From a virus (taxonomy: Duplodnaviria; Heunggongvirae; Uroviricota; Caudoviricetes): a stretch of DNA of 64,000 bases. Below, one piece after another: positions 23,247-61,332 of the stretch (positions are counted from its first letter, which is position 1; every line of letters starts with the position of its first letter). The notes below the pieces were generated by a model, which was given only the letters and a program-made list of their open reading frames with translations, did not search any database and was not told the origin of the DNA. The position numbers and the translations under genes are program-made. Location of the stretch: the IMG/VR virus record IMGVR_UViG_3300006155_000234, one strand, 5' to 3'.

Positions 23247-23615
23247 ATGGTTAAATTAGGTTATGCAAGAACAAGTGAAGGTGGATTTTATGGTGTAGAC
23301 TTATCAAGTGGAGAACCAATACTATTATGTTGTAATAAAAGTATATATGAAGATGTTTCAGGAGATGAGAAAGTTATTAAAGTTGTAGAAGCAGAAGATA
23401 TATGTGAAATATTACAAGTAGATGATTTTGTAAATGGTTATCCAATAGATGATATTAATGTTCAAGGTAGAATAATATATTGTGGTGATTATCAACATGA
23501 ATTTACACCAGAGCAAGTAGTAGATGTCATGACTAAAGAAAGATTTATTAGTAATAGATTTGTAGTTGCAAATGCAATAAACAGAGCGAAACAAATAGAT
23601 AGTGAAGGTTGGTAA
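23247..23615 (+). CDS. hypothetical protein
   Basis: ORF, RBS AAAGGA. Confidence 0.5.
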   Translation: MVKLGYARTSEGGFYGVDLSSGEPILLCCNKSIYEDVSGDEKVIKVVEAEDICEILQVDDFVNGYPIDDINVQGRIIYCGDYQHEFTPEQVVDVMTKERFISNRFVVANAINRAKQIDSEGW

Positions 23616-23616
23616 A

Positions 23617-24279
23617 ATGAAATTTAAGGATTTATCAAATGAAGAATTACAGAAAGATTTTAAGAAATTATTAAGTAGATATACACCAGATGAATTAGTG
23701 AAATCATTAGAGCCATATAAAATAGAAACAGATGAAAAATATAAGTTTATACTATATTTAGATATGGATGGTGTAACTGCAGGTAGTAATTATATAATAA
23801 AAATCCATAATGCTTTAGTTCATAAAGAAGATGAAAATAAAGATTTTGAATATAGAAATTTTATGCAACAATGGTGTTTTCAAAAGGAAGCAGTTGAATT
23901 TTTAAATAAGTTATATGATGTTGCACCATATACAATTATATTAACAACTACAAGAAGATATGAATTGACACCAACAGAATGGAATACAGTTTTTAAGATA
24001 AATAAAGTTAAAGCCTATATAGGTGGTAGGACTAATAGAATACCAAAAGAAAATTATATATCTTGGAGAGAAGATGAAATAGAAGATTATCATTTTAAAG
24101 GAAGTGGAATGTTTACATTTAAAAATATACCTTTTCTAATTATAGATGATGATATATTTGATTTATATAAGTATGGAGATAATTTAATACATGTAGATAC
24201 AGAAACAGGTTTAACTATGGATTATTTTCAAGAGGCATTAGATAAATTAAAAGCACAAGATGTTAAAATAAATATATAG
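23617..24279 (+). CDS. HAD-superfamily hydrolase (5'(3')-nucleotidase/phosphatase-like)
   Basis: HAD motif I LYLDMDGVT, motif II IILTTTR, motif IV FLIIDDD. Confidence 0.5.
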   Translation: MKFKDLSNEELQKDFKKLLSRYTPDELVKSLEPYKIETDEKYKFILYLDMDGVTAGSNYIIKIHNALVHKEDENKDFEYRNFMQQWCFQKEAVEFLNKLYDVAPYTIILTTTRRYELTPTEWNTVFKINKVKAYIGGRTNRIPKENYISWREDEIEDYHFKGSGMFTFKNIPFLIIDDDIFDLYKYGDNLIHVDTETGLTMDYFQEALDKLKAQDVKINI

Positions 24280-25196: not shown

Positions 25197-26741
25197 ATGG
25201 CAGATATAGATAAACAAAGAAAAAATAATATATTTAAAGGTATAAAGTACCATGTAAATGAATTAAAAAGATTGAGACCACAATATGAGTTTTTAATGGT
25301 AGCCTTACAAGGAAGTCAAAATTATAATTTAGATTTATATACAGATGAGTATAAATCTGATATAGATACAGTAGCTATTGTATTACCTACCTTTGAAAAC
25401 TTAATAAATAAGGATGAATATATATCTGAAACAATAATATTAGATAATAATGAACATATAGATGTTAAAGATATTAGGTTAATAACAGAATTATTTAGAA
25501 AACAAAATATAAAATATCTTGAAATATTACATACAGAATTTAGAATATTAAACCCATTATTTAAAAATGATATGTTAGAAATATTAGATAATGCTGATAT
25601 GATTTCTAGTGCAAATCCAGTAAAATTAATAGTTTGTACTTATGGTATGGCTTTAAATAAATTAGAAGCATTAGAACATCCTTATGAAGGGTTGAGAGAT
25701 AAGATAGAAAAATATGGATATGATGGAAAACAATTACATCATATACTAAGATTAAATTTATTTGCAGAAAAATATATAGAAACATTTGATTTTAAAAAAT
25801 CTATGAATTCCCATAATTATATGGAAGATAATATTGAAGTTTTAACTAATGCTAAATTAAGCAAATATTCATTAGAAGAAGCAAGAGATTTGGCAAATGA
25901 TAGTATAAATCAATTAAAGTCACATAGAAATATGTTTTTTAATGAAGTAAATAGTGAAGACATGGTTAAAGAATTTTTAAGTAAAATCTCTGTTAAAATA
26001 TTTGAAAAATATTTAAGAAATATTTTTACACCAAAAAGAAATAAATGGAGAAGAAAAAGCGGTCTATCGTTACCAACCTCAGATAAAATATTTTTTACAT
26101 CTGACTTACATTTTGGACATGAAAATATATTAGACTTTGAACCAAAAAGATGGGAGTTATGTGGAATAACCCAACATCAAGCAATAGTAAATAAATTAAA
26201 AGATGAAGGTTTGACAAATGAAGAAATTTATAATATACCAGATGACCTTTGGGATAAATATAAAATGGAGGTTAATAAGGAATATATAAAAATTCATGAT
26301 GAAGAACTTATAAGAAGATGGAATAGTACAGTAAAACATGATGATGATTTAGTGTTCATATTAGGTGATTTATCATTTAGAAATAGTAAAGAAACTAATG
26401 AAATTGTTAAGAGATTACGAGGTAGAAAGATACTTATATTAGGAAATCATGATAATATATGTATTGGAAAAGATTTTGACCAGTCTTTATTTGAGGAGAT
26501 AGTTGATTATAAAGAAATAACAGTCAATAATAAGAAATACATATTATTTCATTTTCCAATATCTTCATGGAAACAAAAAGAATATGGTAGCACTCATCTA
26601 TATGGGCATATTCATAGCAATAGCCATATTATAAAAAAGATTAAAAATTCATATAATGTTGGTGTAGATGTTAATAATTTTAAGCCAGTATGTTTAAGTG
26701 AATATGAGGCATTTAGTAGAATTTATAAAAAAATTAAATAA
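25197..26741 (+). CDS. fusion protein: N-terminal Pol-beta-superfamily nucleotidyltransferase + C-terminal calcineurin-like metallophosphoesterase
   Basis: N-terminal GSQNYNLDLYTDEYKSDIDTVAIV (GS...[DE]hDh NTase signature); C-terminal FFTSDLHFGHENI, FILGDLSF, ILGNHD, GHIHS. Confidence 0.6.
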   Translation: MADIDKQRKNNIFKGIKYHVNELKRLRPQYEFLMVALQGSQNYNLDLYTDEYKSDIDTVAIVLPTFENLINKDEYISETIILDNNEHIDVKDIRLITELFRKQNIKYLEILHTEFRILNPLFKNDMLEILDNADMISSANPVKLIVCTYGMALNKLEALEHPYEGLRDKIEKYGYDGKQLHHILRLNLFAEKYIETFDFKKSMNSHNYMEDNIEVLTNAKLSKYSLEEARDLANDSINQLKSHRNMFFNEVNSEDMVKEFLSKISVKIFEKYLRNIFTPKRNKWRRKSGLSLPTSDKIFFTSDLHFGHENILDFEPKRWELCGITQHQAIVNKLKDEGLTNEEIYNIPDDLWDKYKMEVNKEYIKIHDEELIRRWNSTVKHDDDLVFILGDLSFRNSKETNEIVKRLRGRKILILGNHDNICIGKDFDQSLFEEIVDYKEITVNNKKYILFHFPISSWKQKEYGSTHLYGHIHSNSHIIKKIKNSYNVGVDVNNFKPVCLSEYEAFSRIYKKIK

Positions 26742-27306: not shown

Positions 27307-27399
27307 GGTAAGGTGGGTGAGTAGGTTTAAACCATCTCTCTGCTAAGGAGACATACATTTAATTATGTATCGAGGGTTCGAATCCCTCCCTTATCGCCA
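27307..27399 (+). tRNA. tRNA-Ser (anticodon GCT), long variable arm, CCA encoded
   Basis: Acceptor ggtaagg/ccttatc (one G-U); anticodon stem tctct/ggaga, loop ctGCTaa; variable-arm hairpin atacat/atgtat; T arm gaggg-ttcgaat-ccctc. Confidence 0.65.
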
Positions 27400-27574
27400 T
27401 AAAGATGTTATATATTATGTATAAGTAATATATAATCTATTTCATAGGGTTCTCAAAGGTGAACAAAATAGAGCATGAGATGAAATAGATTAATCATAGT
27501 TTAGTCTATGAAAAATAAATAATGCTCGATGTGTGGTTGATGATATACCTTAAATCATTTGTATATATATATAT

Positions 27575-27657
27575 CGAGTATGGTGTATGGTGCACGGCAT
27601 CCAACAGGTGGATGATGGAATTGGTTTGAATCCAATGTACTCGACCAGCCTTTAATT
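27575..27657 (+). tRNA. tRNA-like gene (type uncertain; candidate anticodon loop aaCAGgt)
   Basis: Acceptor cgagtat/gtactcg, discriminator a, CCA; T arm attgg-tttgaat-ccaat. The D region is irregular. Confidence 0.35.
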
Positions 27658-27680
27658 AGGTAATGCTAATAATTTAATAC

Positions 27681-27756
27681 TGCGAGGTGGAGAAGTTGGC
27701 ATCTCACTAGCCTCATAAGCTAGAGTTCGCTGGTTCGAATCCAGCCCTCGCACCCA
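27681..27756 (+). tRNA. tRNA-Met/Ile2 type (anticodon CAT), CCA encoded
   Basis: Acceptor tgcgagg/cctcgca; anticodon stem ctagc/gctag, loop ctCATaa; T arm gctgg-ttcgaat-ccagc. Confidence 0.75.
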
Positions 27757-27761
27757 ATATA

Positions 27762-27836
27762 GCAGGGTGGTGTAATATAGCATAGCTGAGCCCATATTTC
27801 GGACGATGTTGGTTCAAATCCAACCCCTGCGACCAA
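27762..27836 (+). tRNA. tRNA-like gene, possibly degenerate (anticodon arm not foldable by eye)
   Basis: T arm gttgg-ttcaaat-ccaac, then 3' acceptor ccctgcg, a, CCA pairing with 5' (a)gcaggg. Confidence 0.3.
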
Positions 27837-27996
27837 ATAACACCTGCTGCATGTATGAAAATATATGTATAGGAGAAAGTGGTTCGAATCCATAACAGGT
27901 GATATGCAAAAATAAAGTAGGTTAATATAGTATCTCGCATTAGATATAAAATTTATATTTGACGTCAATATAATTTACTCCTACTTTACATTATAC

Positions 27997-28067
27997 CCTT
28001 TGATAGTTTAGTGGGAAAATCCCCTGTATGCGACAGGGAGTCAATGGTTCGAATCCATTTCAAAGGC
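27997..28067 (+). tRNA. tRNA (anticodon probably TGC; identity uncertain), no encoded CCA
   Basis: Acceptor cctttga/tcaaagg; D stem gttt/aaat; anticodon stem ccctg/caggg, loop taTGCga; T arm aatgg-ttcgaat-ccatt. Confidence 0.55.
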
Positions 28068-28155
28068 AAGTCTAAAATATATAGGCAGAATTCACTATAT
28101 AGAGATTAGGCAAAAAGATGCTGAGAGCTGCAGAAATCAAGCATCTTTTTAATAT

Positions 28156-28227
28156 AGTCATTTAGTTTAGTAGGAAAAATTACTTTACTAATGTAAGGAG
28201 AGGTTGGTTCGAATCCAACAATGGCTG
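28156..28227 (+). tRNA. tRNA-like gene (anticodon uncertain)
   Basis: Acceptor agtcatt/aatggct (one U-G); D stem gttt/aaat; T arm gttgg-ttcgaat-ccaac. Anticodon stem imperfect. Confidence 0.4.
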
Positions 28228-28250
28228 TAAATAAAAATAGGGCATAGTGG

Positions 28251-28342
28251 CAGAGTTTGGTTTAATGCACCAGTCTTGAAAACTGGCAATCCAGAAATGG
28301 GTTCCTAGGTTCAAATCCTAGCTATGTCGCCATAACAGGTTC
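28251..28342 (+). tRNA. tRNA-Ser (anticodon TGA), long variable arm, CCA encoded
   Basis: Acceptor ggcatag/ctatgtc; anticodon stem ccagt/actgg, loop ctTGAaa; T arm ctagg-ttcaaat-cctag. Confidence 0.7.
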
Positions 28343-30179: not shown

Positions 30180-30485
30180 ATGTTAGAACAAGAAAGAAAA
30201 GAAGAAATGTTAAATTATTTTAATGAAACCATATTTGAACCAGCAATACAATATGGTACAGAAAATAATATACCTGAAATGTCACAAGGTGCAAGATATA
30301 CTAGAATGAGAATGCAACAAAGAAACCCAGAAGGAATATTACATTATTTCTGGAGTGCTATAGTTAGTACAGAAAAAAGTATCTCATTTTCAAAATTACT
30401 AAAAAGACATAATGTGGTAAGGTTTGAAGATATAATAGATGATGTAAGAGATAGATTTGGTAATGGTTATATTGATAGTGTATGA
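30180..30485 (+). CDS. hypothetical protein
   Basis: ORF, RBS GGAGGG. Confidence 0.5.
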   Translation: MLEQERKEEMLNYFNETIFEPAIQYGTENNIPEMSQGARYTRMRMQQRNPEGILHYFWSAIVSTEKSISFSKLLKRHNVVRFEDIIDDVRDRFGNGYIDSV

Positions 30486-30533: not shown

Positions 30534-30546
30534 GGTGAAATATTAT

Positions 30547-31428
30547 ATGAAAAAGTATCATTTTGTTTATATCACAAGAAGGATTGGAACACCTTATTAT
30601 TACTATGGTGTTCATAGTACAAATAACATAAATGATGGTTATATTGGTTCTGGGTATCATTTTTTAAATGCAGTTAGAAAGTATGGGAAAGAAAGTTTTA
30701 GTAGAGAAATCATAAAATTTTTTGAAAGTCATGATGAAGCTTTGAAATTTGAAAATGAAATCATAACCAAAGAAGTTCTAGAAGATGAATATTGTTATAA
30801 TATTCAACATGGTGGAAAAGGTTCAAAAGATGAACATACTCTATCAACAAAAGAAAAAATGTCTTTAAGTGCAAAAGAAAGAAAAATACCACAAGAAACA
30901 AGAAATAAGTTAAAAGAATCTATGAAAAGAAAAATAGAGTTATATGGATATTATCACAGTGAAGAAACCAGAAAAAGAATATCAGAAACATTGAAGAGTA
31001 AAGATATGGGTAAGTATAATAAAGGAAGAATACAAACAGAAAGTGAAAGAAATAAAAGAAGTATATCTTTAAAATTGGCATACAAGGAGGGAAGGCATAA
31101 AAAATCTGATTTATCAGGAGATAAAAATCCGATGTATGGTAAACATTTTACAGATAGTATGAAACAAAATTTATCAAATGCACAGAAAGAAAGATTTAGT
31201 AATGTACTGGAAAGAGAAAAAACATCTATATCTACTAAAAATGGCATGATAAAATCAGAAAAGTGGAATACATATAAAGCAGAGCTTAAATCTGGTATTA
31301 GAGATGGTTCTATGAAAGGTAAATCTAATCCAAATTTTGGTAAGAGTATGAAATTGGCTATGCACATAAGACATCATATAAAAAAAGGAATATTTAATAA
31401 GGAGTGTGACTATTGTGTTATTCGGTGA
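30547..31428 (+). CDS. GIY-YIG homing endonuclease with NUMOD3 repeats (free-standing HEG)
   Basis: YHFVYITRRIGTPYYYYGVHS...YIGSG...FENEII is the GIY-YIG core; repeated NUMOD3-like units (NPMYGKHFTDSMK, NPNFGKSMK). Start moved to ATG 30547. Confidence 0.75.
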   Translation: MKKYHFVYITRRIGTPYYYYGVHSTNNINDGYIGSGYHFLNAVRKYGKESFSREIIKFFESHDEALKFENEIITKEVLEDEYCYNIQHGGKGSKDEHTLSTKEKMSLSAKERKIPQETRNKLKESMKRKIELYGYYHSEETRKRISETLKSKDMGKYNKGRIQTESERNKRSISLKLAYKEGRHKKSDLSGDKNPMYGKHFTDSMKQNLSNAQKERFSNVLEREKTSISTKNGMIKSEKWNTYKAELKSGIRDGSMKGKSNPNFGKSMKLAMHIRHHIKKGIFNKECDYCVIR

Positions 31429-33395
31429 TTATGAAAAAGAAGAAATTGAAAAATTAGAAAGAATTATAAAGGAACAGTCTGAGAAGTATTATACAGATGG
31501 TACACAAACATTGACAGATGTAGAGTTTGATAATTTGGTTGATAGACTAAGATTATTAAATCCTACTTCTAAAATATTGCAAGTTCCTCGGATGGGGTTA
31601 CAAACAAACAGGGCATAAAGTAAAACATAAGTATCAATTAGTAAAAAGTCTTGATAAATGTAGAACTTATGATGAAGTTCCTGAAAGATTTAAAAATGGG
31701 TTTGTATCTTTATCTCCTAAACTAGATGGTTTAACTGGTGTATTTTATTATGAAGGTGGTAAATTGATTAAAGCAGTTACAAGAGGTAATGGTCAAGAGG
31801 GAAAAGATATTACAGATAAGGCGAGAATAATTGTAGGTAATGAAATAGAAGATAAGAATTTTACAGGTGGTGTAAGAGGAGAATTAGAAATATCTGTTGA
31901 AAACTGGGAAAAGGTTAAATATAAATATCCCGAAGCTAAAAATGCAAGAAATTTATGTGCTGGTTGGATAAACTCTAAAGATTATTCAATAGATGATATA
32001 AAATTAATTGATTTTATAACTTATAAAATAACAGGACAAGAAAGGGATATGAATAATATTGTTACAGATAGTGTATGTAGTAGAAGAAATCCAGCCAAAG
32101 AAGACATTAAAGATTGGTTGAAGTGGAATTTTAAGAATGTTATTGAAACTGTTACCACTATATTAGATAGAAAAGATAAATTTGAAGAATATATGAAAGA
32201 TACATTTGAAAGTTTTAAATATACGATGGGATACGAATTAGATGGTGTTGTAATCTCAAATACAGAAGTTATATATCATGAAGATGCAAAATCATATATT
32301 TATGATGAGTGTGCTTTTAAATTTGCAGCAGAAGAAAAAGAAACTACAATAAATAATATTAAATGGGAATTATCAAGAACACAAAGATATATACCAGTAT
32401 TAGAAATTGAGCCAATAGAATTGTCTGGTGCAGTAGTGCATAATGTAACTGGAAATAATGCTCAATATTTATTAGATAATGGTTTAGGTGTTGGTGCTAC
32501 AATTTCTGTATGCAGAAGTGGTGAGGTTATTCCAAAGCACATGGACACATTAGAAGCAGCAGATGTAGATTTACCAGAAAAATGCTCAATATGTGGACAT
32601 ACTTTAATTTGGGATGGTGTAGATTTAAAATGTGCATTTAAAGATTGTCCAAATATAGAATATAGTGATTTAAGACAATGGTGTGAAACAATAGGCGAAA
32701 CAGATGGTATGGCTTGGACACTTATGGAACAATATTTAGTAAAATTTAGAATCATGAGTATATCAGATTTATATTGTTTAGAAACTAAAGAAAAAATTGA
32801 TAGCTGGGCTTACTTATCTAATTTAAGTATAACAGATAGAAAGGCTGTAGAATTTTTTGGAAAACTATATAATAATAAGGTAGATGTAGAAAAAGCTTTA
32901 ATTGCTTTAAATATCCCAAGATTAGGTGATAAAACTGCAAAAGATTTAGCAAAAGAAACAAATACAGTAAAGCAGCTAATAAATGATATAAAAGGTTTAG
33001 GATATATAGATAATATTCTAAGTGACAAGTTATTAAAAATTGTCAAAGAAGCTACAACTAAATCTATAATAGAAAATCAAACAACTAAATTAAAAAATAT
33101 ATTATATATAGGAAATAGAATAAAGTATAAAGAAGTATCTAATAAAGAAATAATTAAAGTTGCTGTAACAGGTGCATTAAATACAATGAAAAGAAGTGCA
33201 TTTGAAAAGTATATTGAAAGTTATGGATATGAACTATCAAGTGCTATAAAGTCTTGTAAGTATTTAATAACAAATACTCCAGATAGTGGTTCAAGCAAAA
33301 ATAAAGATGCCCAAAAATATGGTGTTGAAATAATTACAGAACAAGCATTTTTAGATTTAATAGGTGGAAATACTAAAAATAATAGTTTATTTTAA
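31406..33395 (+). CDS. ligA: NAD-dependent DNA ligase (LigA), reading frame broken by a 1-nt frame change at about 31594-31618
   Basis: Frame +2 (31406-31618) encodes the Ia domain (YYTDGTQTLTDVEFDNLVDRLRLL). Frame +0 continues from 31602 with the KxDG adenylation motif (SPKLDGLTG), TRGNGQEGKDIT, a Cys4 zinc finger (CSICGH..CAFKDC), HhH and BRCT domains. The two frames abut at a GGGG run. Confidence 0.7.
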
Positions 33396-37238: not shown

Positions 37239-38042
37239 ATGGCAAAAGTTAGTTTTAAAGATATAGAACATGTTCTACCAGATAATATGATGTGGTTGGA
37301 AGACAGAACAATATTATTAACTAAAGCAGGTTCAGTTATATATGGAACAAATGTAGAAACATCTGATACTGATTATAAGGGTGTATGTATTCCACCAAAA
37401 GAATATTATTTAGGATTAAAATCTATAAATGAATATAATAAGTCTGGTGGTAAAAATTTTGGAGAACATAATACAAAAGAAGATATTGATATAGTAATAT
37501 GCCATATAAATAAATTTGTTAGAGACGCTATGCAAGGTGTACCAAATAATATTGATATACTATTTTGTAGAGATGAAGATATAATTCATATAGATGATTT
37601 TGGAAAAGAGTTAAGAAGTATAAGAAAAGAATTTTTATCTAAGGAAATATATAAAAAGTTTTGTGGATTTGCAATGTCACAAAGGTATAAACTAGATATA
37701 AAGAAGCAAAATGGAACTGGCAGACAAGATTTAGTTGAAAAATTTGGTTATGATACTAAATTTGCTTATCATGCTATAAGATTACTATATTGTGCAAAAC
37801 AAATATTATTAACACATGATTATTGTTCTTACAGACCAGAAGAAGAGAGAAAATTATTATTAGATATAAGAGCAGGAAAATATACATTAGAAGAAATATT
37901 TGATATGTTTGACAGATTAGATAAAGAGATACACCAATACTATGATGAAAGTACATTACAAAAGACACCAGATTATCATAAAATAAATAAATGGTTGATA
38001 GATATAAATGAGAAAGCTTTAAATTATGATTTTACAATATAG
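37239..38042 (+). CDS. Pol-beta-superfamily nucleotidyltransferase
   Basis: GSVIYGTNVETSDTDYKGVCI matches the GS-x(9-13)-DxD NTase signature; helical C-terminal domain. Confidence 0.55.
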   Translation: MAKVSFKDIEHVLPDNMMWLEDRTILLTKAGSVIYGTNVETSDTDYKGVCIPPKEYYLGLKSINEYNKSGGKNFGEHNTKEDIDIVICHINKFVRDAMQGVPNNIDILFCRDEDIIHIDDFGKELRSIRKEFLSKEIYKKFCGFAMSQRYKLDIKKQNGTGRQDLVEKFGYDTKFAYHAIRLLYCAKQILLTHDYCSYRPEEERKLLLDIRAGKYTLEEIFDMFDRLDKEIHQYYDESTLQKTPDYHKINKWLIDINEKALNYDFTI

Positions 38043-38224: not shown

Positions 38225-39013
38225 ATGTCAAATTCAAAGATAAAAACATTAAGTGATAGAATGAAAGATTATGAATCTGTATCAGATGTTAAACTTACAA
38301 AAAGAACACCTGTTATAGTAAGAATAGATGGTAAAGCATTCCACACATTTACAAGAGGTTTAGATAAACCATTTGATGAAATACTATCACAAGTAATGCA
38401 ATATGTTTGTGAAAATCTTATATTGAGTGTTCAAGGGTGCAAGTTAGCATATACACAGTCTGATGAGATAAGTTTATTATTAACAGACTGGGATAAATTA
38501 ACTACTGATAGTTATTTTGATTATAGATTACAAAAGGTATGTTCAGTAATAGCATCAGCAGCAACAATGTATTTTAATAAGTTTGTAACACAAAAGGTAT
38601 TAGCTTGGTCTGGTTATGCAAATTCAGATGAACCAGAGAATTTAGACTTATTTAATAAATGGCAAAAGAAAATGGGTATAGCAATGTTTGATGCAAGAGC
38701 ATTTAATATACCAAAGGAAGATGTATGTAATTACTTTTTATGGAGGCAACAAGATGCATCAAGAAACTCAATACAATCACTAGGACAATCAAAGTTTAGT
38801 CAAAAACAACTTGATAAGAAAAATACAAGTGATATACAAGATATGTTAATGGAAAAGTACAATATAAATTGGAATAATTTAGAAACTAAATGGAAAAGAG
38901 GATTTTGTGTATATAGAAAAGATGAGGGAATATTCTGTGATACAGAAATACCATTATTTAATAAAGATAGAGATTTTATAGATAAATTTTTATTAGTACC
39001 AGAAGAAGAGTAG
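38225..39013 (+). CDS. Thg1 family tRNA-His guanylyltransferase-like 3'-5' nucleotidyltransferase
   Basis: PVIVRIDGKAFHTFTRG (Thg1 RxDGxxFxxFT motif) and QSDEISLLL (catalytic carboxylates); a KDYESV.. start typical of the family. Confidence 0.75.
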   Translation: MSNSKIKTLSDRMKDYESVSDVKLTKRTPVIVRIDGKAFHTFTRGLDKPFDEILSQVMQYVCENLILSVQGCKLAYTQSDEISLLLTDWDKLTTDSYFDYRLQKVCSVIASAATMYFNKFVTQKVLAWSGYANSDEPENLDLFNKWQKKMGIAMFDARAFNIPKEDVCNYFLWRQQDASRNSIQSLGQSKFSQKQLDKKNTSDIQDMLMEKYNINWNNLETKWKRGFCVYRKDEGIFCDTEIPLFNKDRDFIDKFLLVPEEE

Positions 39014-39037: not shown

Positions 39038-39113
39038 GCTTCATTAGCCAAGTTGGTTAAGGCAACAGATTGCAAATCTGTGACCATTGGTTCGAATCCA
39101 ATATGAAGCTCCA
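39038..39113 (+). tRNA. tRNA-Cys (anticodon GCA), CCA encoded
   Basis: Acceptor gcttcat/atgaagc; anticodon stem acaga/tctgt, loop ttGCAaa; T arm attgg-ttcgaat-ccaat. Confidence 0.8.
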
Positions 39114-39122
39114 ACCCTATAT

Positions 39123-39197
39123 AGGAGTGTAGTGTTAATGGTAGCACAGCAGTCTCCAAAACTGTTTGTCTGGGTTCAAATCCTAGCACTCCTGCCA
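39123..39197 (+). tRNA. tRNA-Trp (anticodon CCA), CCA encoded
   Basis: Acceptor aggagtg/cactcct; anticodon loop ctCCAaa; T arm ctggg-ttcaaat-cctag. Confidence 0.8.
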
Positions 39198-39223: not shown

Positions 39224-40129
39224 GTGAGGTTTATGATAGAGTGGAAAACAATCGAAAACAACCAAGATTATGAAGTATCTAATATGAGTATAGTTAGAGA
39301 AAAATCAACAGGTAAATATTTAAAACATTATACTTTATCTACATCGGGAGGTTCTAGAACAAAAGTATATTTGAGAACAGGTACTCGAAAAGGTTTTAGA
39401 TTAATAGACCTTGCTAATTTAGTTGCAGAATATTTTGTAGATAATAAAGATGGTTTAGATGTTGTTGATTTTAAAGATGGTGATTCTTCTAATTGTTTAG
39501 CATCTAACTTATATTATAGAAATAAAATTACAGATAGAGGTTACTTTCATAAAGTATATGAAAGTAAAACAGACGAAGAATATATAAAGGAAGCAATAGC
39601 AGATTATAGAAAAAAGTATCCTAATGATTATTTTATGGAAGATAAAGATTTGGAAATTGAATATCAAATGAGAATGTTAGATAATAGAAATAAAGGTTTT
39701 GCAAGAACAATGCACTTGTTTGACCATGCAAAAATAATACATAATCAAAATTCAAGTAAAATAGAAGAATATATAGATGATACATATAGTAATACTACTG
39801 TAGATATAATAAATGATGAATTTATACTTAATGAGATAGATAAAATAGAAAATAATTCTAGAATAGTACAAAAGTTAATATATCATTTGAATAATACACT
39901 TACAACAAGAGAATCTTTTGTATTAAAGTACAGGTATGGTCTATTACCAGATATATATTATAAAGATATACCAAAAATAAAAGATGGAACAAGTTTAAAT
40001 AATGCACCATATACATTAGAAGATACAGGAAGGCAACTAGGTGTAACAAAAGAAAGAATAAGACAAATAGAAGCAAGGGCATTTAGGAAATTAAGACACC
40101 CATCAAGATTAGGAGGTAGCTATGAGTAA
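39224..40129 (+). CDS. chimeric protein: N-terminal NUMOD4/HNH_3-like homing-endonuclease domain (catalytic His substituted) + C-terminal sigma-70 region-4 HTH
   Basis: N-terminal [30 protein letters not shown]...[19 protein letters not shown]; C-terminal [29 protein letters not shown] (region 4.2 signature). Confidence 0.6.
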
Positions 40130-41203: not shown

Positions 41204-41374
41204 ATGAATAGAGTATTAGGAATAATTATATGTATTATAATATTTATAATAGGAAATGGAATATTATATAAATATAAAGACGATGTTGCTGCAGGTATGG
41301 AAGATTTTGCTGGAATATCTGCAATAGTGATAAGTATTATAGGAATTTTAGCATGTATAGGAGGCAGTTTTTAA
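41204..41374 (+). CDS. small two-TM membrane protein (56 aa)
   Basis: ATG behind AAGGAGGAAAA; strongly hydrophobic. Confidence 0.4.
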   Translation: MNRVLGIIICIIIFIIGNGILYKYKDDVAAGMEDFAGISAIVISIIGILACIGGSF

Positions 41375-41985
41375 TGATAAAGTTTAAATTAGAGGGTAAA
41401 TGTTATAATGTAAAAGATATTGAAATAAATTCAGGGGTAACTGTTTTAACAGGACCTAATGGTAGTGGAAAGACTTATGCTTGTACCCAAATTTGTGATT
41501 ATTTAGATGAGCAGAAAAAGAAATATATAAATGTAAATGTGTATGAAGAAGGAAAACATAAAGCAGATAGTTTTACATTATCAGGTGATATGCAGTCATT
41601 AGCAAAACATATAGTAAGTTCTGAGGGGCAAAGAGTATTTGATACACTTGTAGATATAAATGTTCCAAAGATAGGTGATTATGTAAGACAATTAGTTGAT
41701 GGTAATATTAAAGAAGGATATATTTTAATTGATGGTTGTGATAGTGGTGTTAGTATAGATTTAATGCTTACTTATAGGTCATTATTCAGGTTGATATTAG
41801 ATGATTGTAAAGAAAAAAATATTGATATACATATTATAATAACTTCTAATAGTTATGAATTAGTATATGATTATGATTGTATTTGGATACCAACGATGGG
41901 ACATTATAAACGAGGTGGAGAAGCAGATGGTTACAATTTGTGGAGAAAGATGTATGAAGATGTTTATAAGGATAGAAATAAATAA
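41374..41985 (+). CDS. small P-loop ATPase (AAA_15/ABC-like N-terminal)
   Basis: VLTGPNGSGKTYACTQI Walker A behind a beta-strand lead; YILIDGCDSG Walker-B-like. Start moved to ATG 41374. Confidence 0.5.
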   Translation: MIKFKLEGKCYNVKDIEINSGVTVLTGPNGSGKTYACTQICDYLDEQKKKYINVNVYEEGKHKADSFTLSGDMQSLAKHIVSSEGQRVFDTLVDINVPKIGDYVRQLVDGNIKEGYILIDGCDSGVSIDLMLTYRSLFRLILDDCKEKNIDIHIIITSNSYELVYDYDCIWIPTMGHYKRGGEADGYNLWRKMYEDVYKDRNK

Positions 41986-42224: not shown

Positions 42225-42253
42225 TTGACATATTTTAAAACTTATTATATAAT
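42225..42253 (+). promoter_or_regulatory. sigma-A-type promoter TTGACA-17-TATAAT (P9)
   Basis: atacTTGACAtattttaaaacttattaTATAAT. Confidence 0.6.
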
Positions 42254-42281
42254 AAACAAAAACAGAGAGGTAGGAAATTTT

Positions 42282-44738
42282 ATGAGAAATTTAGTGGTTT
42301 TAAGGGGATGCCCAGGTTCAGGTAAATCAACCTGGATAAAAGAAAATGGTTTAGAGCAATATACAATAAGCCCAGATAATATAAGAATGATGGCATCTGC
42401 ACCAATATTGACAGAAAATGGAACAGATGCAACTATATCACAAGAAAATGAATCTTATATATGGTCATTATTATATGAATTATTAGAGAAAAGAATGAAA
42501 AATGGAGATTTTACTATAATAGATGCAACACATAGCCGTTCAACAGATTTTAGTAGATATAATTCATTATGTGAATCATATAGATATAGAAAGTATGTAG
42601 TATCATTTACAGATGTACCAAAAGAAGTATGTATAGAAAGAAATCATCAAAGAAATGCCTATAAAAGAGTTCCTGATGAAGTAATTGATAAAATGTATGC
42701 AAGATTTGAAACTCAAGAAAAGACAAGTGGTTGGGTAGATATTCCTAGAGATAAGTTTTGGGAAACATTTAGTAATAAAGAATTTGATTTTAATGAGTAT
42801 AAAAGAATACATATTATAGGAGATATTCATGGTTGTTTTAACCCATTAAAAGAATATATACTAAAACAAACATATACAGAATATCAAGAAGAAGTAAATT
42901 CTCAAAATTTACATCAATTTTTAAATGATGAAGATGCTTATATATTTGTAGGGGACTATTTAGATAGAGGACTACAAAATAAGGAAGTATTAGAATTTAT
43001 TATTAGTATATGTCAAAAAAGTAATGTACTTTTATTAGAAGGAAATCATGAAAGATTTATTTGGTATTGGGCAAATGAACTGGATAGCGAGATTAAAAGT
43101 AAAGAATTTATGAACTTTACATTACCACAAATTAAATCAATAGACCCATCAAGTATGAGAAAGTTTTATAGAAAACTAGGACAAATGGCTTATATAAACT
43201 TTAAAGGACAAACATATTTTGTATGTCATGGGGGATTGAATACTATCCCAAATAATTTACCTTTAATATCAACAAGTCAAATGATACATGGTGTTGGAGC
43301 TTTCAAATTCCCTATTGACGAATCATATACAGAAAACATGAAAAATAAATCAATAATACAAATACACGGACATAGATATATTGCACCAGAAAAACCAATG
43401 AGAGATTTACCTTTATCATTCTCATTAGAGGATGGTGTTGAATTTGGTGGAAATCTAAAAGTAGCAGAATTAACAAATAAGGGTATATTTTTCCATAGTA
43501 TAAAAAATGACTTATATAGGGATACATCTTGGGAAGAACACCAACAAATAGTAAATACACAAGAAATAAATATAGAAAATATTGTAGATAGATTAAGAAA
43601 TAATAGAAATATAAGAGAAAGTGTATTAGAAGGTGGAATATCATCATTCAACTTTACACGTAAAGCATTTGAAAAAGATAAATGGGATAAGGAAACTGTT
43701 AAAGCAAGAGGTTTATTTATAGATACTGTAAATAATAAAATAGTAGCAAGAGGTTATGAAAAGTTCTTTAATATAAACGAACAAGAATCATGTAGATTAT
43801 TTAATTTAAAGAGATTATTTGATACAGATGAAGAAGTTGTTGCTTATAAAAAATATAATGGTTTCTTGGGCATTTTAAGTTATTATAATGATAATTTACA
43901 ATTTCATAGTAAATCTTCAAATTGTGGAGAATATGCAATGTATTTTAAAAATTTATTTTATAATACATTTACAGAAGAACAAATAGACAATATTACAGTA
44001 TTTCTAAAAAATAATAATATGTCAATGACATTTGAAGTTATAGATTTAGAAAATGACCCTCATATTATAGATGAAAAAGAAAGTAGAGTTGTCTTATTAG
44101 ATATAATTCATAATAAAGTAGATTTTGAGAAGATACCTTATGATGGATTAATGCAAATTGCTAAATCGTTAAAATTAAAAGATACAGATTATAAGCAAGT
44201 ATATATTAAATTTGATACATATAGGCAATTAACTGAATTTTATGAACAACATAAAAATCAAAATGAATTAATAGACACAGATATAGAAGGCGTTGTAATT
44301 GAATGTGGAACATTTATGACAAAGCTTAAATTTAGTTATTATTCTTTTTGGAAGTCTATGAGGACTGTTTATGAAATGACTATGAATGGTAAAAATGTAG
44401 AATTAAGAAAACTATATAATGCAACTGCGAATTATTTTTATAAATTTATTAAAGATAAATATGATGATAAATGTGTTGAGTATATGAAAATATTAGATAA
44501 TATAAATAATGATTTTGTAAAATTATCTGATTTAAAACAATGTGAACTAGCAGAAGATGGTGAAAGTATAATTATGCAAAAACAAATAAAAACTAGAACA
44601 GAAACAGGTTATACTTGTGAAAATATAAAAGAAAATATTAATATTGGTAAAGAAAATATCAGTAAGATAGTTGAACTAAGGAAAAAAGATAATATTATTT
44701 CATTAAGAAATGAATATTATGCAAATGGAGGAGTATAA
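42282..44738 (+). CDS. pnkp: bacterial-type polynucleotide kinase-phosphatase (Pnkp): 5'-OH kinase + metallophosphoesterase + ligase-like adenylyltransferase
   Basis: Kinase P-loop LRGCPGSGKSTW with IIDATH. MPE motifs IIGDIHGC, FVGDYLDRG, LEGNHE, CHGG. C-terminal nucleotidyltransferase motif I KKYNGFLG, motif IV EGVVIE, and motif V lysines. Confidence 0.75.
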   Translation: MRNLVVLRGCPGSGKSTWIKENGLEQYTISPDNIRMMASAPILTENGTDATISQENESYIWSLLYELLEKRMKNGDFTIIDATHSRSTDFSRYNSLCESYRYRKYVVSFTDVPKEVCIERNHQRNAYKRVPDEVIDKMYARFETQEKTSGWVDIPRDKFWETFSNKEFDFNEYKRIHIIGDIHGCFNPLKEYILKQTYTEYQEEVNSQNLHQFLNDEDAYIFVGDYLDRGLQNKEVLEFIISICQKSNVLLLEGNHERFIWYWANELDSEIKSKEFMNFTLPQIKSIDPSSMRKFYRKLGQMAYINFKGQTYFVCHGGLNTIPNNLPLISTSQMIHGVGAFKFPIDESYTENMKNKSIIQIHGHRYIAPEKPMRDLPLSFSLEDGVEFGGNLKVAELTNKGIFFHSIKNDLYRDTSWEEHQQIVNTQEINIENIVDRLRNNRNIRESVLEGGISSFNFTRKAFEKDKWDKETVKARGLFIDTVNNKIVARGYEKFFNINEQESCRLFNLKRLFDTDEEVVAYKKYNGFLGILSYYNDNLQFHSKSSNCGEYAMYFKNLFYNTFTEEQIDNITVFLKNNNMSMTFEVIDLENDPHIIDEKESRVVLLDIIHNKVDFEKIPYDGLMQIAKSLKLKDTDYKQVYIKFDTYRQLTEFYEQHKNQNELIDTDIEGVVIECGTFMTKLKFSYYSFWKSMRTVYEMTMNGKNVELRKLYNATANYFYKFIKDKYDDKCVEYMKILDNINNDFVKLSDLKQCELAEDGESIIMQKQIKTRTETGYTCENIKENINIGKENISKIVELRKKDNIISLRNEYYANGGV

Positions 44739-44911
44739 TGTTACTAATTAGAAGAATTGGAAATAAAAATAGGTTAGCAATACCTCAGGATGTAATGGAA
44801 CAAATGAATCTAAAAGAAGGAGATGCCATTAATATTGATATACAAAATATTAATGGTAATCCTACCATTTTAATTAGAAAAGGAGTAATATATGGAGAAT
44901 ATAAGTCTTAA
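44738..44911 (+). CDS. AbrB/MazE/SpoVT-type swapped-hairpin DNA-binding protein (57 aa)
   Basis: GNKNRLAIPQDVMEQMNLKEGDAINIDI; start overlaps the pnkp stop (TAATG). Confidence 0.5.
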   Translation: MLLIRRIGNKNRLAIPQDVMEQMNLKEGDAINIDIQNINGNPTILIRKGVIYGEYKS

Positions 44912-46544: not shown

Positions 46545-46997
46545 ATGAGAAACTTGAAAGAGAGATTATTAGACGATTTAAAGGAAGCAATGAGAAATAA
46601 GGATATAATAGTTAAGAATACAATACAAAGTGTTAGAGCTTCCGTATTACAAGAAGAAAAAGATATACAAAAAGAATTAAATGATGTTGATATTGAGAAT
46701 ATTATAATGAAAGAAAAGAAGAAAAGACAAGATGCATTAGAACAATTTAAGAAAGCAAATAGAGAAGACCTTATAATGCAAACAGAAAGAGAAATACAAG
46801 TATTAGAAGGTTATTTACCAGAACAAATATCAATAGAAGATTTAGAAATAGAAGTTGCAAAAATAATAAATCAAGTAGATGCCCATTCAATAAAAGATAT
46901 GGGTATTGTAATGAGAGCAGCAAAAGAACAATTTGGAAATCAGGTTGATGGGAAAGAGTTAAGTGAAATGGTAAAAAGAAAGTTAGGTGAATTATAA
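46545..46997 (+). CDS. GatB/YqeY-domain protein (tRNA-associated domain family)
   Basis: LKEAMRNKD...SVRASVLQ...EKKKRQDALEQFKKANREDLIMQTEREIQVLEGYLPEQISIEDLE...MGIVMRAAKEQFGNQVDGKELSEMVKRKL follows the YqeY consensus end to end. Confidence 0.7.
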   Translation: MRNLKERLLDDLKEAMRNKDIIVKNTIQSVRASVLQEEKDIQKELNDVDIENIIMKEKKKRQDALEQFKKANREDLIMQTEREIQVLEGYLPEQISIEDLEIEVAKIINQVDAHSIKDMGIVMRAAKEQFGNQVDGKELSEMVKRKLGEL

Positions 46998-58776: not shown

Positions 58777-61332
58777 ATGGCAAAGAACCCAGTATCATAT
58801 TATGATGGAGAAAATATAACTTGTTTTCCATCATCAAATGCTAAAGATTTTGGTAAATTACATACAGAATTTAATGAAGCAAGATTTGTAACCAGAGTTG
58901 CAAAAAAGAATTTCTGTATTAAAAATCCAAGTTTTGTATTGAGTGCTGAAAATGATATAAAAACAAATAAAACTGTATTACAAATATCAGAAGGCGAGGC
59001 ATCTATTAATGGTATGGATATTATAGCATCAGTACCAATTCAAATAGACCCTCCAGCAGAGGCAGGTAAATGGTATGTTGCTTTTAAATTAGGAAGAGAT
59101 AATCTAGGAAGAGATTTTACAGTTGGAAAATATAAATTAAAAGGAAATGTACTAGGAGATTTAACAGTAGGTGTACAAAAAACATTTGAAGGAATGTATT
59201 TAACTTATTATAATGAAAGATTAGATGAGGGAAATGAAGACCCAGATATGCTTTATTTAGGTAGTATAGAATGGGATGGTAATGATTTTACAAATATAGA
59301 GGAAGACCCTCAAAAGTATTCCAGAATAGAAGCAGAAGATGTTGGATGTTATATAAAAGACCCAAAACATGCTGATGTTTATTATATGGATTTACAAAGT
59401 TGGTTATATAAAGTTCCAGACTGGTATTTCTCTAAAGAAGGGGATGTTTGTTATGGTGAAATCAATGTAGTTCCAGGAAGAGGAGCACATCCATCTCCAT
59501 ATCAAGACCCAATGCCTGGATTTATATTAAGAGCTTATGATAAGAATACTACTAAAATGGTGTTAAAAGCATCATCATTAGAAAATGCTACATTAATGAG
59601 ATATGGTGATATAAATAATGATGGTGAGATAAATGACGCTGACTTAGCATTATTGACTGATTTTGTAAATGGTGTAAAAACACCAACACCATTAGAAAAA
59701 GAACTAGCCTGTGTTAGTGGAAATAGACAAGGTGATTTAACAGAAAAAGATATAGAATTATTAAGAAATTATGTACAAGGTTCTAGACCAGATTTAGTAA
59801 AAGGCGAGAAGAAATTAGTAGGAAAAACTGGAGTTATATATGGTATAGGTGATGTAACAGAAGCAATCGAAATATATGCATCAAATTCTAAAGTAGAAAT
59901 TGATATGAACCATGCTCAAATATATTCTAATTTTCAAGATGATATATTCCATATTCATAACCCAGAAGGTATATGTATTGAATCAGGTAGTGGGGATATT
60001 AAGTTAGAAGCATATAATGATGTTTATATGAAAAGATTTGATAGTAATGCTCCAACATTAAGATTAACAGGTAATGTTTTAAGAATGACAGACCCTAATA
60101 CACCAGACTTAAAACATGAGTGGGAATTGATAAAAGATGGTACAAATCAAAAGGCACATACAACAACAGGAAAAACAATACAAGAATATGACCTAAATAA
60201 TAAATTCTATAATATACTTGCAAATGATACAATTAGGATGAATGTATATCCTCAATTCTATATGCAAAATGCAAGGAATAGATGTATAGGTACATTGTAT
60301 TTTGGACCTGATGATGGAAATGATGATAATTATTTTAAAAGAAATGAAATACAATTAGACAGTAATCAAGATGATAATGTAGATTTAAAACTAACAGATA
60401 GGACAATTTTCCTAAGAGATGAGAATGGTGGTAGTACAAATAGTTATATTAAAGTTGGTGGAACTAATGGTAATAATGGTGTAACAGCTTATTCTAATGG
60501 AAATATGGAATTGAAGAATACAACAGGAATATCTGAAATTAAGTTTACAGGAAATAGTGCAGCAAATACAGCAAGAATATGGCATGAACATAATAATAAC
60601 ATATTACACATTGATACAAACCTTCATATAAAAAATAATATAACAGCAGATGGAGATGGATATTTTAATGGTGGAGATGTTTATATCAAAAATCAGGGTG
60701 GAACATCAAACCTATATTTCACAGATGGTACTAAAACATATAAAATCTATCATTTGAATAATGAAGATAAATTACACATAAATACAAACTTAAATATGGA
60801 TAACAATAATATAGAAAATGTAAACAATATCTATGCTAATACAAGTATAAATGTAGGACCAAAAGGCTCTGACAACAAGTATCCAATAACACTAGATAAA
60901 AATGGTAATATAGATGCAAAAGGAGATATAACAGGAAAGAGAGTTTTTGGTGCTGTTTATAATGACTATGGTGAAATATTTAGAAAAGATAAGGATGAAA
61001 TTATTGAATATGGGGATATAGTTTGTTTAAGAGAAGATGGATTAGTACACAAAGTAGAAACACAAGAAGATTTATTTAATCTAATTGGAATATGTTCAAA
61101 TACAATAGGTATGTGTTTAGGTGGTGCAGAATTAGAAGAAGATGAAAAATGCCCAGTTGGTATAGTAGGTAAGATATGGGTTAAAACAGATGATATGGAT
61201 TTAAAGCCAGGAGACCATGTAAGAGCTACAAGTAATGGAACAGTAGTAAAGAATAAAGAAAAGGCATTTGAAAAGTTTGGTATAGTAATGCAAAAATATG
61301 AAAATGGAAAAGTTTTAATATTTGTTAAATAA
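58777..61332 (+). CDS. tail fibre / host-adhesion protein containing an internal dockerin module (about 59605-59781)
   Basis: 851 aa, RBS AAAGGAGG. GDINNDGEINDADLALLTDFVNG...GNRQGDLTEKDIELLRNYVQG is a duplicated Ca-binding F-hand dockerin signature; beta-rich fibre flanks. Confidence 0.6.
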   Translation: MAKNPVSYYDGENITCFPSSNAKDFGKLHTEFNEARFVTRVAKKNFCIKNPSFVLSAENDIKTNKTVLQISEGEASINGMDIIASVPIQIDPPAEAGKWYVAFKLGRDNLGRDFTVGKYKLKGNVLGDLTVGVQKTFEGMYLTYYNERLDEGNEDPDMLYLGSIEWDGNDFTNIEEDPQKYSRIEAEDVGCYIKDPKHADVYYMDLQSWLYKVPDWYFSKEGDVCYGEINVVPGRGAHPSPYQDPMPGFILRAYDKNTTKMVLKASSLENATLMRYGDINNDGEINDADLALLTDFVNGVKTPTPLEKELACVSGNRQGDLTEKDIELLRNYVQGSRPDLVKGEKKLVGKTGVIYGIGDVTEAIEIYASNSKVEIDMNHAQIYSNFQDDIFHIHNPEGICIESGSGDIKLEAYNDVYMKRFDSNAPTLRLTGNVLRMTDPNTPDLKHEWELIKDGTNQKAHTTTGKTIQEYDLNNKFYNILANDTIRMNVYPQFYMQNARNRCIGTLYFGPDDGNDDNYFKRNEIQLDSNQDDNVDLKLTDRTIFLRDENGGSTNSYIKVGGTNGNNGVTAYSNGNMELKNTTGISEIKFTGNSAANTARIWHEHNNNILHIDTNLHIKNNITADGDGYFNGGDVYIKNQGGTSNLYFTDGTKTYKIYHLNNEDKLHINTNLNMDNNNIENVNNIYANTSINVGPKGSDNKYPITLDKNGNIDAKGDITGKRVFGAVYNDYGEIFRKDKDEIIEYGDIVCLREDGLVHKVETQEDLFNLIGICSNTIGMCLGGAELEEDEKCPVGIVGKIWVKTDDMDLKPGDHVRATSNGTVVKNKEKAFEKFGIVMQKYENGKVLIFVK

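Follow-up and report, generated by a model that had tools for sequence, protein, structure and literature searches.

A predicted kinase-phosphatase-ligase RNA repair protein of a jumbo phage with a Trl1-like ligase module

Introduction

RNA heal-and-seal enzymes offer phages an escape from tRNA-cutting defences, among which PrrC, RloC, and Cas13a have been named in published work. In the bacterial system, represented by the Clostridium thermocellum enzyme (CthPnkp; family TIGR04075; ligase of the Rnl4 clade), a kinase, a metallophosphoesterase, and a ligase follow one another along a single protein that forms a two-gene operon with its partner Hen1. The fungal enzyme Trl1 is a single-chain heal-and-seal enzyme as well, with an Rnl6 ligase domain, the domain order LIG-KIN-CPD, and a 2H cyclic phosphodiesterase that heals the 3' end. 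In phage T4, which counters the PrrC anticodon nuclease, the healing and sealing of broken tRNA are performed by two separate proteins, Pnkp, whose phosphatase is a HAD/DxDxT acylphosphatase, and the ligase Rnl1. Here we describe a gene carried by a stretch of 64,000 nucleotides (nt) of IMG/VR record IMGVR_UViG_3300006155_000234 (hereafter the window, meaning the whole stretch that was analysed), which derives from a phage genome of ~220 kb. Its product of 818 amino acids (aa) is, by its domain homologies, a hybrid that combines healing modules of the Pnkp type with a sealing module of the Trl1 type, and it probably serves a jumbo phage as a self-contained heal-and-seal enzyme for ribotoxin-cut RNAs.

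Other toxin nucleases are further possible tRNA-cutting defences, and phages that carry such an enzyme are predicted to resist ribotoxin-type defences. The three predicted activities reside in one chain that occurs in Twort-like, SPbeta-like, and many gut-metagenome phages and spans hundreds of clusters at 50% identity, and its annotation can be corrected, in that it is not a Hen1-dependent Pnkp. A compact kinase-phosphatase-ligase that acts without a partner might, in addition, find use as a reagent. Lastly, a putative Trl1-like pocket, whose residues are conserved, hints that the ligase may use a 2'-phosphate, and this is the one feature that could make the family important.

Domain architecture

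The original prediction, made from the letters and their open reading frames (ORFs), was a complete C. thermocellum-type Pnkp in which a kinase, a phosphoesterase, and a ligase are encoded in this order in one 818-aa chain. The ORF and profile searches bear out the three modules and their order: AAA_33 (aa 4-143, 1e-22), Metallophos (aa 175-368, 1e-15), and RNA_lig_T4_1 (PF09511, the Rnl1/Trl1 family; aa 474-687, 9e-33, with the whole profile covered) are all matched significantly and without overlap. The motifs that had been quoted are found in the kinase (GCPGSGKST, aa 9-17; IIDATH, aa 79-84), in the phosphoesterase (GDIHGC, aa 180-185; GDYLDRG, aa 224-230; GNHE, aa 254-257), and in the ligase (KKYNGF, aa 523-528, with the motif I lysine K524; EGVVIE, aa 669-674), where the motif V lysines K681 and K683 are also present and the nucleotidyltransferase lysines are kept on alignment; as sequence matches, these motifs lie far beyond chance. 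Residue conservation was scored in 279 family sequences, and the catalytic residues of all three modules are invariant or nearly so. AlphaFold models have a pLDDT of 88 for the full-length protein and of 94 for the ligase module.

The assignment to a CthPnkp-type Pnkp holds for the kinase and the phosphatase, and fails for the ligase. Specifically, NCBIfam TIGR04075 aligns with aa 3-321, that is, with the kinase and the phosphatase (profile positions 9-325 of 851), and the alignment ends there with 104.2 bits versus a family cut-off of 750, so that the word "complete" does not stand; the ligase belongs to PF09511, and its only relatives by sequence in the PDB are the ligase domains of fungal Trl1. 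The hybrid fusion is a module variant of known heal-and-seal systems and not a new kind of system.

Kinase and metallophosphoesterase modules

The kinase module is homologous to the CthPnkp kinase on profile and model comparison. The CthPnkp kinase (4gp7) is matched at a profile E of 1.3e-11 and with a Foldseek TMt of 0.74 at 27% identity, and the key residues K15/S16 of the P-loop, D32, R35, and R124 are kept in at least 274 of the 279 sequences. The T4 kinase is related too (1ly1, 4e-5), and of the T4 structure 1ltq only the kinase part aligns, with aa 1-141. The kinase of the phage protein is closer to CthPnkp and T4 Pnk than to Trl1.

The phosphatase module is homologous to the CthPnkp phosphatase by the same kinds of comparison (4j6o, profile E 6e-14 and Foldseek TMt 0.70), and it is also similar in fold to the lambda phosphatase (1g5b, Foldseek TMt 0.67-0.70). 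The nine active-site residues D181, H183, D225, R229, N255, H256, H316, H364, and E383 align with D187, H189, D233, R237, N263, H264, H323, H376, and D392 of 4j6o, all being kept apart from the replacement of D392 by Glu (E383). This Metallophos domain sets the protein apart from T4 Pnk, as originally proposed, since the T4 enzyme employs a HAD phosphatase, and from Trl1, whose 2H domain is not detected here by Pfam. An Ap4A-hydrolase or protein-phosphatase identity of the middle domain was considered and rejected, since the matches to PrpE, ApaH, and PP1 are weaker than the match to CthPnkp and involve only generic metal-binding motifs. At the position equivalent to aa 183, 19 of the 279 family members have GDxQG in place of GDxHG; the window protein keeps His183, like 260 of its relatives.

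Ligase module

A PDB sequence search with the C-terminal 379 aa alone matches fungal Trl1 ligase domains only, and neither T4 Rnl1 nor the CthPnkp ligase is matched even at E 10. With the family profile, the ligase domain of Candida glabrata Trl1 is matched at 3.5e-23 and that of Chaetomium at ~1e-14. The ARGLF and YxKFFNI signatures of the fungal domain (6n0t, 6n67, 8rbj, 9qw7) are shared, R476, K494, and F495 of the Rnl1-like N sub-domain align with Trl1 residues, and all nucleotidyltransferase motifs align as well, namely I (K524-x-N526-G527), III (E585), IV (E669-G670), and V (K681, K683); the residues of both groups are invariant or nearly so in the family.

Structure comparison gives the same picture. 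The highest scores belong to the Trl1 ligase domain (6n0t, 25.6, with 295 residues aligned at 22% identity; 9qw7, 23.5), followed by T4 Rnl1 (23.3, 242 residues aligned), Rnl3 (16-17), Rnl5 (13.6), and Rnl2 (12.4), while the Rnl4 ligase in the CthPnkp-C/Hen1-N structure (4drf) scores 7.4 at rank 32 and the Rnl of the Pnkp1/Rnl/Hen1 complex scores 6.5. The Foldseek ranking of the ligase families agrees with this order.

RNA ligases are assigned to clades by the domain that is attached to their nucleotidyltransferase core (PMC6379707). The clade-defining C-terminal domain of the Trl1 type is present in the window protein, where the Trl1 alignment extends through the C-domain to the final helix (IIKLRNDF in Trl1 versus DIIsLRkeF in the family), with I805, I806, L808, and R809 conserved. 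The C-terminal Rnl4-type ligase domain of bacterial Pnkp was not found in the window protein, and neither was the C-terminal tRNA-specificity domain of T4 Rnl1, whose C-domain remains unmatched in the structural alignment. Because the Trl1 alignment continues to the last helix, the ligase is best placed, on sequence grounds, in or beside the Rnl6 (Trl1-LIG) clade.

The likeness to Trl1 has its limits, in that the domain order is reversed and in that the clade of the window protein has a ~75-aa beta-hairpin insertion in the C-domain. This insertion, which is confined to the jumbo-phage clade, occurs in homologues of ~780-840 aa and is missing from those of ~720 aa. Helices and a long beta-hairpin, with strands at 762-773 and 776-787, are predicted for it, and it could be an extra RNA-binding arm. 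A C-terminal extension as the source of the extra length was rejected, since the homologue alignment places the insertion inside the C-domain.

The identical domain order and the kinship of the kinase and phosphatase, which are closest to CthPnkp, would also be expected of a genuine bacterial-type Pnkp whose ligase is inactive alone and whose Hen1 is encoded elsewhere in the ~220-kb genome, with repair coupled to 2'-O-methylation. This is very improbable, given the truncated and sub-threshold TIGR04075 alignment and the missing match to the CthPnkp ligase, and for the ligase module it is already refuted by fold and sequence. Among the 87 window ORFs other than the repair gene, no Hen1-like methyltransferase was returned by Pfam scans, in line with what had been noticed before. 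To our knowledge, Hen1 dependence is a property of the Rnl4 ligases alone; the missing Hen1 is thus expected, because the ligase is Trl1/Rnl1-like.

Proposed mechanism and biological role

The hybrid enzyme would repair RNA in three steps. The N-terminal P-loop kinase would phosphorylate the 5'-OH of the broken RNA, the Mn/Ni-type binuclear phosphoesterase would open the 2',3'-cyclic phosphate and strip the phosphate to leave a 3'-OH, and the ATP-dependent ligase, adenylylated on K524, would transfer AMP onto the 5'-phosphate and join the ends. A ligase of the Trl1 (Rnl6)/T4 Rnl1 lineage should act without a Hen1 partner. The likeliest substrates would be tRNAs, or other RNAs of translation, cut by host ribotoxin-type defences, and the probable co-workers are the phage tRNAs and the RlaP-type and Thg1-like nucleotidyltransferases, which would refill missing nucleotides at the 3' and 5' ends. 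Published precedents exist for several of these elements. tRNA ends healed by CthPnkp are sealed by T4 Rnl1 (PMC1920235), and comparative genomics describes phage RNA repair with Rnl1-type ligases, polynucleotide kinases, calcineurin-like phosphatases, RlaP, and Thg1 (PMC7824862). Moreover, RlaP proteins extend RNA 3' ends with nucleotides (PMC12776372), and RlaP and Thg1 put back the nucleotides lost at broken ends, which a 5'-phosphate ligase then seals (PMC7824862; PMC12776372). The gene context in the window matches this picture.

The same partners recur around related genes. In 86 related loci, compared with up to 10 kb of flank per side, a nucleotidyltransferase homologous to the RlaP-like part of the window gene at 25197-26741 is found no more than 10 kb from the trifunctional gene in 21 loci (directly downstream where inspected), a Pfam-type RlaP in nine, and a Thg1-like gene in nine. 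The jumbo-phage relatives L008 and L032 have a YqeY gene a short way downstream of the orthologue, and in the relative L010 a homologue of the HAD phosphatase of the 'Swiss Army Knife' (SAK) type (Table 1) is found 6.6 kb from the trifunctional gene. From this gene context, a counter-ribotoxin role is plausible.

Some points weigh against a dedicated RNA repair enzyme that counters ribotoxins. A literature search found no biochemical study of any family member. Many relatives carry the gene by itself in a region of early or replication genes and lack a further RNA-repair gene within 10 kb, and the accessory repair genes are therefore not obligatory partners. The kinase and phosphatase of CthPnkp also act on DNA ends, so that the phage protein may not be specific for RNA. 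Furthermore, the conserved residues H594, K691, and R694, which appear to form a Trl1-type 2'-phosphate pocket, misfit a simple T4-like route through a 2'-OH.

Another possibility is a role in the phage's own nucleic-acid metabolism, either in the processing or splicing of phage tRNAs or transcripts, in the repair of self-inflicted breaks, in DNA-end healing, or in structural moonlighting. T4 Rnl1/gp63 moonlights in tail-fibre attachment, and PHROG 562 ('RNA ligase and tail fiber protein attachment catalyst') matches the ligase module at 3e-23; in addition, many relatives lie among replication and nucleotide-metabolism genes, and the window has several homing endonucleases and many tRNA genes. 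Such a role is nevertheless improbable. The full set of healing residues is kept, and these are needed only for 5'-OH and cyclic-phosphate ends, which are the signature of metal-independent ribotoxins; the gene recurs beside RlaP and Thg1-like end-repair enzymes; and ARAGORN and Rfam report no tRNA introns in the window.

A putative 2'-phosphate pocket

In the fungal ligase, a His-Arg-Arg triad enforces 2'-PO4 specificity, and this triad is reported to be unique to that clade and missing from other ligase families (PMC6379707; PMC11404444; PMC12440814). In the profile alignment, H594, K691, and R694 of the window protein correspond to H227, R334, and R337 of CthTrl1, the His and the second Arg being identical and the first Arg being Lys. 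H594 is present in 279 of 279 sequences, K691 in 276 (two others have Arg), and R694 in 274.

Repair could thus follow a yeast-type route, in which the cyclic phosphate would be opened to 3'-OH,2'-PO4 ends, the Trl1-like ligase would prefer or require the 2'-phosphate through H594, K691, and R694, and a host Tpt1/KptA, or else the phosphomonoesterase of the enzyme itself, would later strip the 2'-phosphate from the junction. Beyond the family-wide conservation of residues on the triad positions, this route is consistent with the retention of the Trl1-type C-domain up to the last helix and with the healing chemistry of CthPnkp, which proceeds through a 2'-phosphomonoester; the CthPnkp mutant H189D arrests at this intermediate, its ends become substrates of the yeast ligase, and the favoured sealer shifts from T4 Rnl1 to that enzyme (PMC1920235). 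The natural Gln of the GDxQG variants, in 19 of the 279 sequences, lies at the position equivalent to H189.

Conversely, the His183 of the window protein and of most relatives predicts full removal of the phosphate, and the first Arg of the triad is replaced by Lys. No KptA/Tpt1 was found in Pfam scans of the window ORFs or within 10 kb in any of the 86 related loci, so that the Tpt1 partner of the fungal system has no counterpart there. A KptA/Tpt1 probe, validated against solved Tpt1 structures, matches 98 phage records, in phage groups other than those carrying the enzyme: the KptA-encoding phages of the collection infect Erwinia, Klebsiella, and Clostridioides, and the enzyme is carried by Staphylococcus and Bacillus phages. 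The kptA neighbourhood of phiCD211 contains no Trl1-like ligase. The triad is, moreover, an imperfect predictor, as the plant Trl1 needs the 2'-phosphate without these arginines and CtTrl1 merely prefers it (PMC12440814). On balance, we regard the yeast-type route as unlikely but worth considering.

Similarly doubtful is the wider proposal that the phage family represents the Trl1/Rnl6 tRNA ligases in viruses of prokaryotes, as a branch that has kept its use of the 2'-phosphate and leaves the junction marked with it. If true, yeast-type RNA ligation would for the first time be known outside eukaryotes, and bacteria would have a natural supply of 2'-phosphorylated RNA, and thereby a possible purpose for their Tpt1/KptA homologues, for which we know of no substrates. 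It would also bear on whether the eukaryotic tRNA ligase came from phages or the reverse.

Family distribution

The family is phage-borne, large, and already catalogued. A search of 5.8 billion proteins returned 4917 matches, of which the top 120 all have the same three-domain architecture. An exhaustive search of 50%-identity representatives gave 910 clusters at E<1e-30, and almost all of the top 150 are full-length proteins of ~720 aa. At least 250 IMG/VR loci have a homologue. A tblastn search of 50,697 phage genomes yields 97 records in which coverage reaches at least 80%, and the highest-ranked of the carriers listed are Twort-, Sep1-, and Kay-like Staphylococcus phages, SPbeta-like Bacillus phages, and an Alicyclobacillus phage. 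No near-identical DNA was found in the phage collection.

PHROG 8238 ("RNA ligase") is covered almost end to end, aa 1-747 aligning with profile positions 1-731 of 737 at an E of 1.1e-201. Together with GenBank phage genes such as ORF008 of Staphylococcus phage Twort and those of the Sep1-like, Bacillus SPbeta-like, and Alicyclobacillus KKP_3916 phages, this family shares the three-module architecture throughout, at 38-42% identity over 85% of the protein; the window protein differs from it in belonging to the jumbo-phage sub-clade with the C-domain insertion. The annotations of the carrier phages vary among "RNA ligase", "polynucleotide kinase", "tRNA ligase", and hypothetical, and these names describe only one of the three activities. 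A 2016 study by Burroughs and Aravind (NAR 44:8525) most likely catalogues this architecture, and perhaps the exact fusion.

A mainly cellular origin was rejected, since 185,579 bacterial species representatives contain only six loci, all in metagenome-assembled genomes (Bacillota, Bacilli or Tenericutes), and a seventh homologue is part of a prophage-like region on a metagenome contig of 1.1 Mb.

Gene call and expression signals

The 818-aa product starting at the ATG at 42282 is also called by independent gene callers on 21 public contigs, most of which are of the 0.2-1 Mb class and measure up to ~222 kb among the cluster members listed, and all homologues in the alignment start at MRxLV, in agreement with this ATG. 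Upstream of it, TTGACA-17-TATAAT is the sole 12/12 match to the consensus between 41000 and 46000, and is a candidate promoter, with the reservation that, overall, this AT-rich DNA has no more promoter-like sequences than its shuffled versions. As a perfect sigma-70-type element, it suggests transcription by the host RNA polymerase. A longer ORF from a TTG at 42225 was rejected as the gene start, since this TTG is part of the -35 hexamer and the homologues begin at the ATG.

Immediately downstream, a 56-aa MazE/AbrB-like (SpoVT-AbrB) ORF (44738-44908, +) has an ATG that overlaps the TAA of the repair gene (TAATG), an arrangement that suggests translational coupling. In the relative L006, a MazE-like gene lies 2.4 kb downstream; tblastn found none in the 86 related loci.

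Gene neighbourhood in the window

The window belongs to a jumbo phage. Its genes include those for a holin, an amidase, a T4 gp15-like protein, tail proteins, and homing endonucleases, and related contigs measure 210-240 kb. The company of tRNA genes and Thg1-like genes had been recognized in the original prediction and is upheld, with two Thg1-like genes. The RNA-end-repair kit of the window is unusually full (Table 1).

Table 1. Coordinates of the repair gene, its modules and signals, and the neighbouring RNA-repair and tRNA genes in the window.
Feature	Coordinates	Strand	Basis
Thg1-like, second divergent copy	12-719, cut by window start	+	25% identity over 221 aa to 38225-39013, E 1e-13
HAD phosphatase, 'Swiss Army Knife' RNA-repair type	23602..24279	+	PF18143 HAD_SAK_2, 8.9e-15
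Divergent RlaP-like nucleotidyltransferase + metallophosphoesterase fusion, 514 aa	25197..26741	+	PHROG 388, PHROG 547
tRNA gene cluster	27307..28332	+	ARAGORN, 6 genes; Rfam, 5 at gathering score
RlaP nucleotidyltransferase	37239..38042	+	PF10127, 1.7e-17
Thg1-like 3'-5' nucleotidyltransferase	38225..39013	+	PF04446, 3e-31
tRNA-Cys(GCA) + tRNA-Trp(CCA)	39038..39197	+	ARAGORN, Rfam
Candidate sigma-70-type promoter, TTGACA-17 nt-TATAAT	42225..42253	+	28 nt 5' of start codon
Ribosome-binding site, GAGAGGTAGGA	42265..42275	+	6 nt 5' of ATG 42282; read off the sequence
Coding sequence, predicted 818-aa trifunctional RNA repair enzyme	42282..44738 including stop	+	ORF list, Pfam, PHROG
Module 1, P-loop 5'-OH polynucleotide kinase, aa 1-165	42282..42776	+	AAA_33 1e-22, 4gp7
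Module 2, binuclear metallophosphoesterase (lambda-phosphatase/CthPnkp type), aa 170-410	42789..43511	+	Metallophos 1e-15, 4j6o
Module 3a, RNA ligase adenylyltransferase domain, aa 440-687	43599..44342	+	Aligned to Trl1
Module 3b, ligase C-domain homologous to Trl1-LIG C-domain, aa 688-818	44343..44735	+	Carries K691, R694; last helix DIISLRNEY
Insertion in C-domain, ~aa 728-800	44463..44681	+	Homologue alignment; model pLDDT 77-90
YqeY (GatB_YqeY-type)	46545..46997	+	PF09424, 1e-38

The fusion protein at 25197-26741, located immediately upstream of the tRNA cluster, comprises a Pol-beta-type RlaP-like nucleotidyltransferase (aa 1-268), which matches the window RlaP at 37239-38042 in BLASTP at 6e-8, and a metallophosphoesterase (~aa 282-514; Metallophos, 8.5e-7) with the motifs SDLHFGH, GDLS, GNHD, and GHIH. 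The divergent Thg1-like gene at the window start was missed by Pfam in the ATG-started ORF 42-719. Within the tRNA cluster, Rfam adds a tRNA at 27761-27832 that is not called by ARAGORN, the ARAGORN calls for tRNA-Leu (27575-27647) and tRNA-Ala (27997-28067) are below the Rfam gathering score, and the tRNA called by ARAGORN at 28155-28228 has a two-base undetermined anticodon.

The interval from the Thg1-like gene at 38225-39013 to the repair gene contains the genes for a phage sigma-factor-like protein (39224-40129, +; Sigma70_r4, 9e-13) and a small STAND/AAA-like P-loop ATPase (41353-41985, +; NPHP3_N, 1e-7), both of which are kept in the closest jumbo relative, L032. One of 47 small plus-strand ORFs matches Tad8, a type II Thoeris inhibitor, in Pfam at 2.1e-16, which points to further anti-defence genes in the window, and a Tad2-like gene is found near the orthologue in L008.

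The ORF of a NAD-dependent DNA ligase (31764-33395, +) begins at position 65 of the adenylation-domain profile. Upstream of it lie a 101-aa ORF (30180-30485) and a GIY-YIG/NUMOD3 homing endonuclease (30535-31428), so the gene of this DNA ligase is possibly split, or a mobile element may interrupt it. Lastly, an 851-aa protein (58777-61332, +) combines a type I dockerin with a Peptidase_G2 intramolecular-chaperone domain and is probably a tail fibre or spike. The dockerin domain and the G+C content of the window (~26%) hint at a cellulosome-related Clostridia host.

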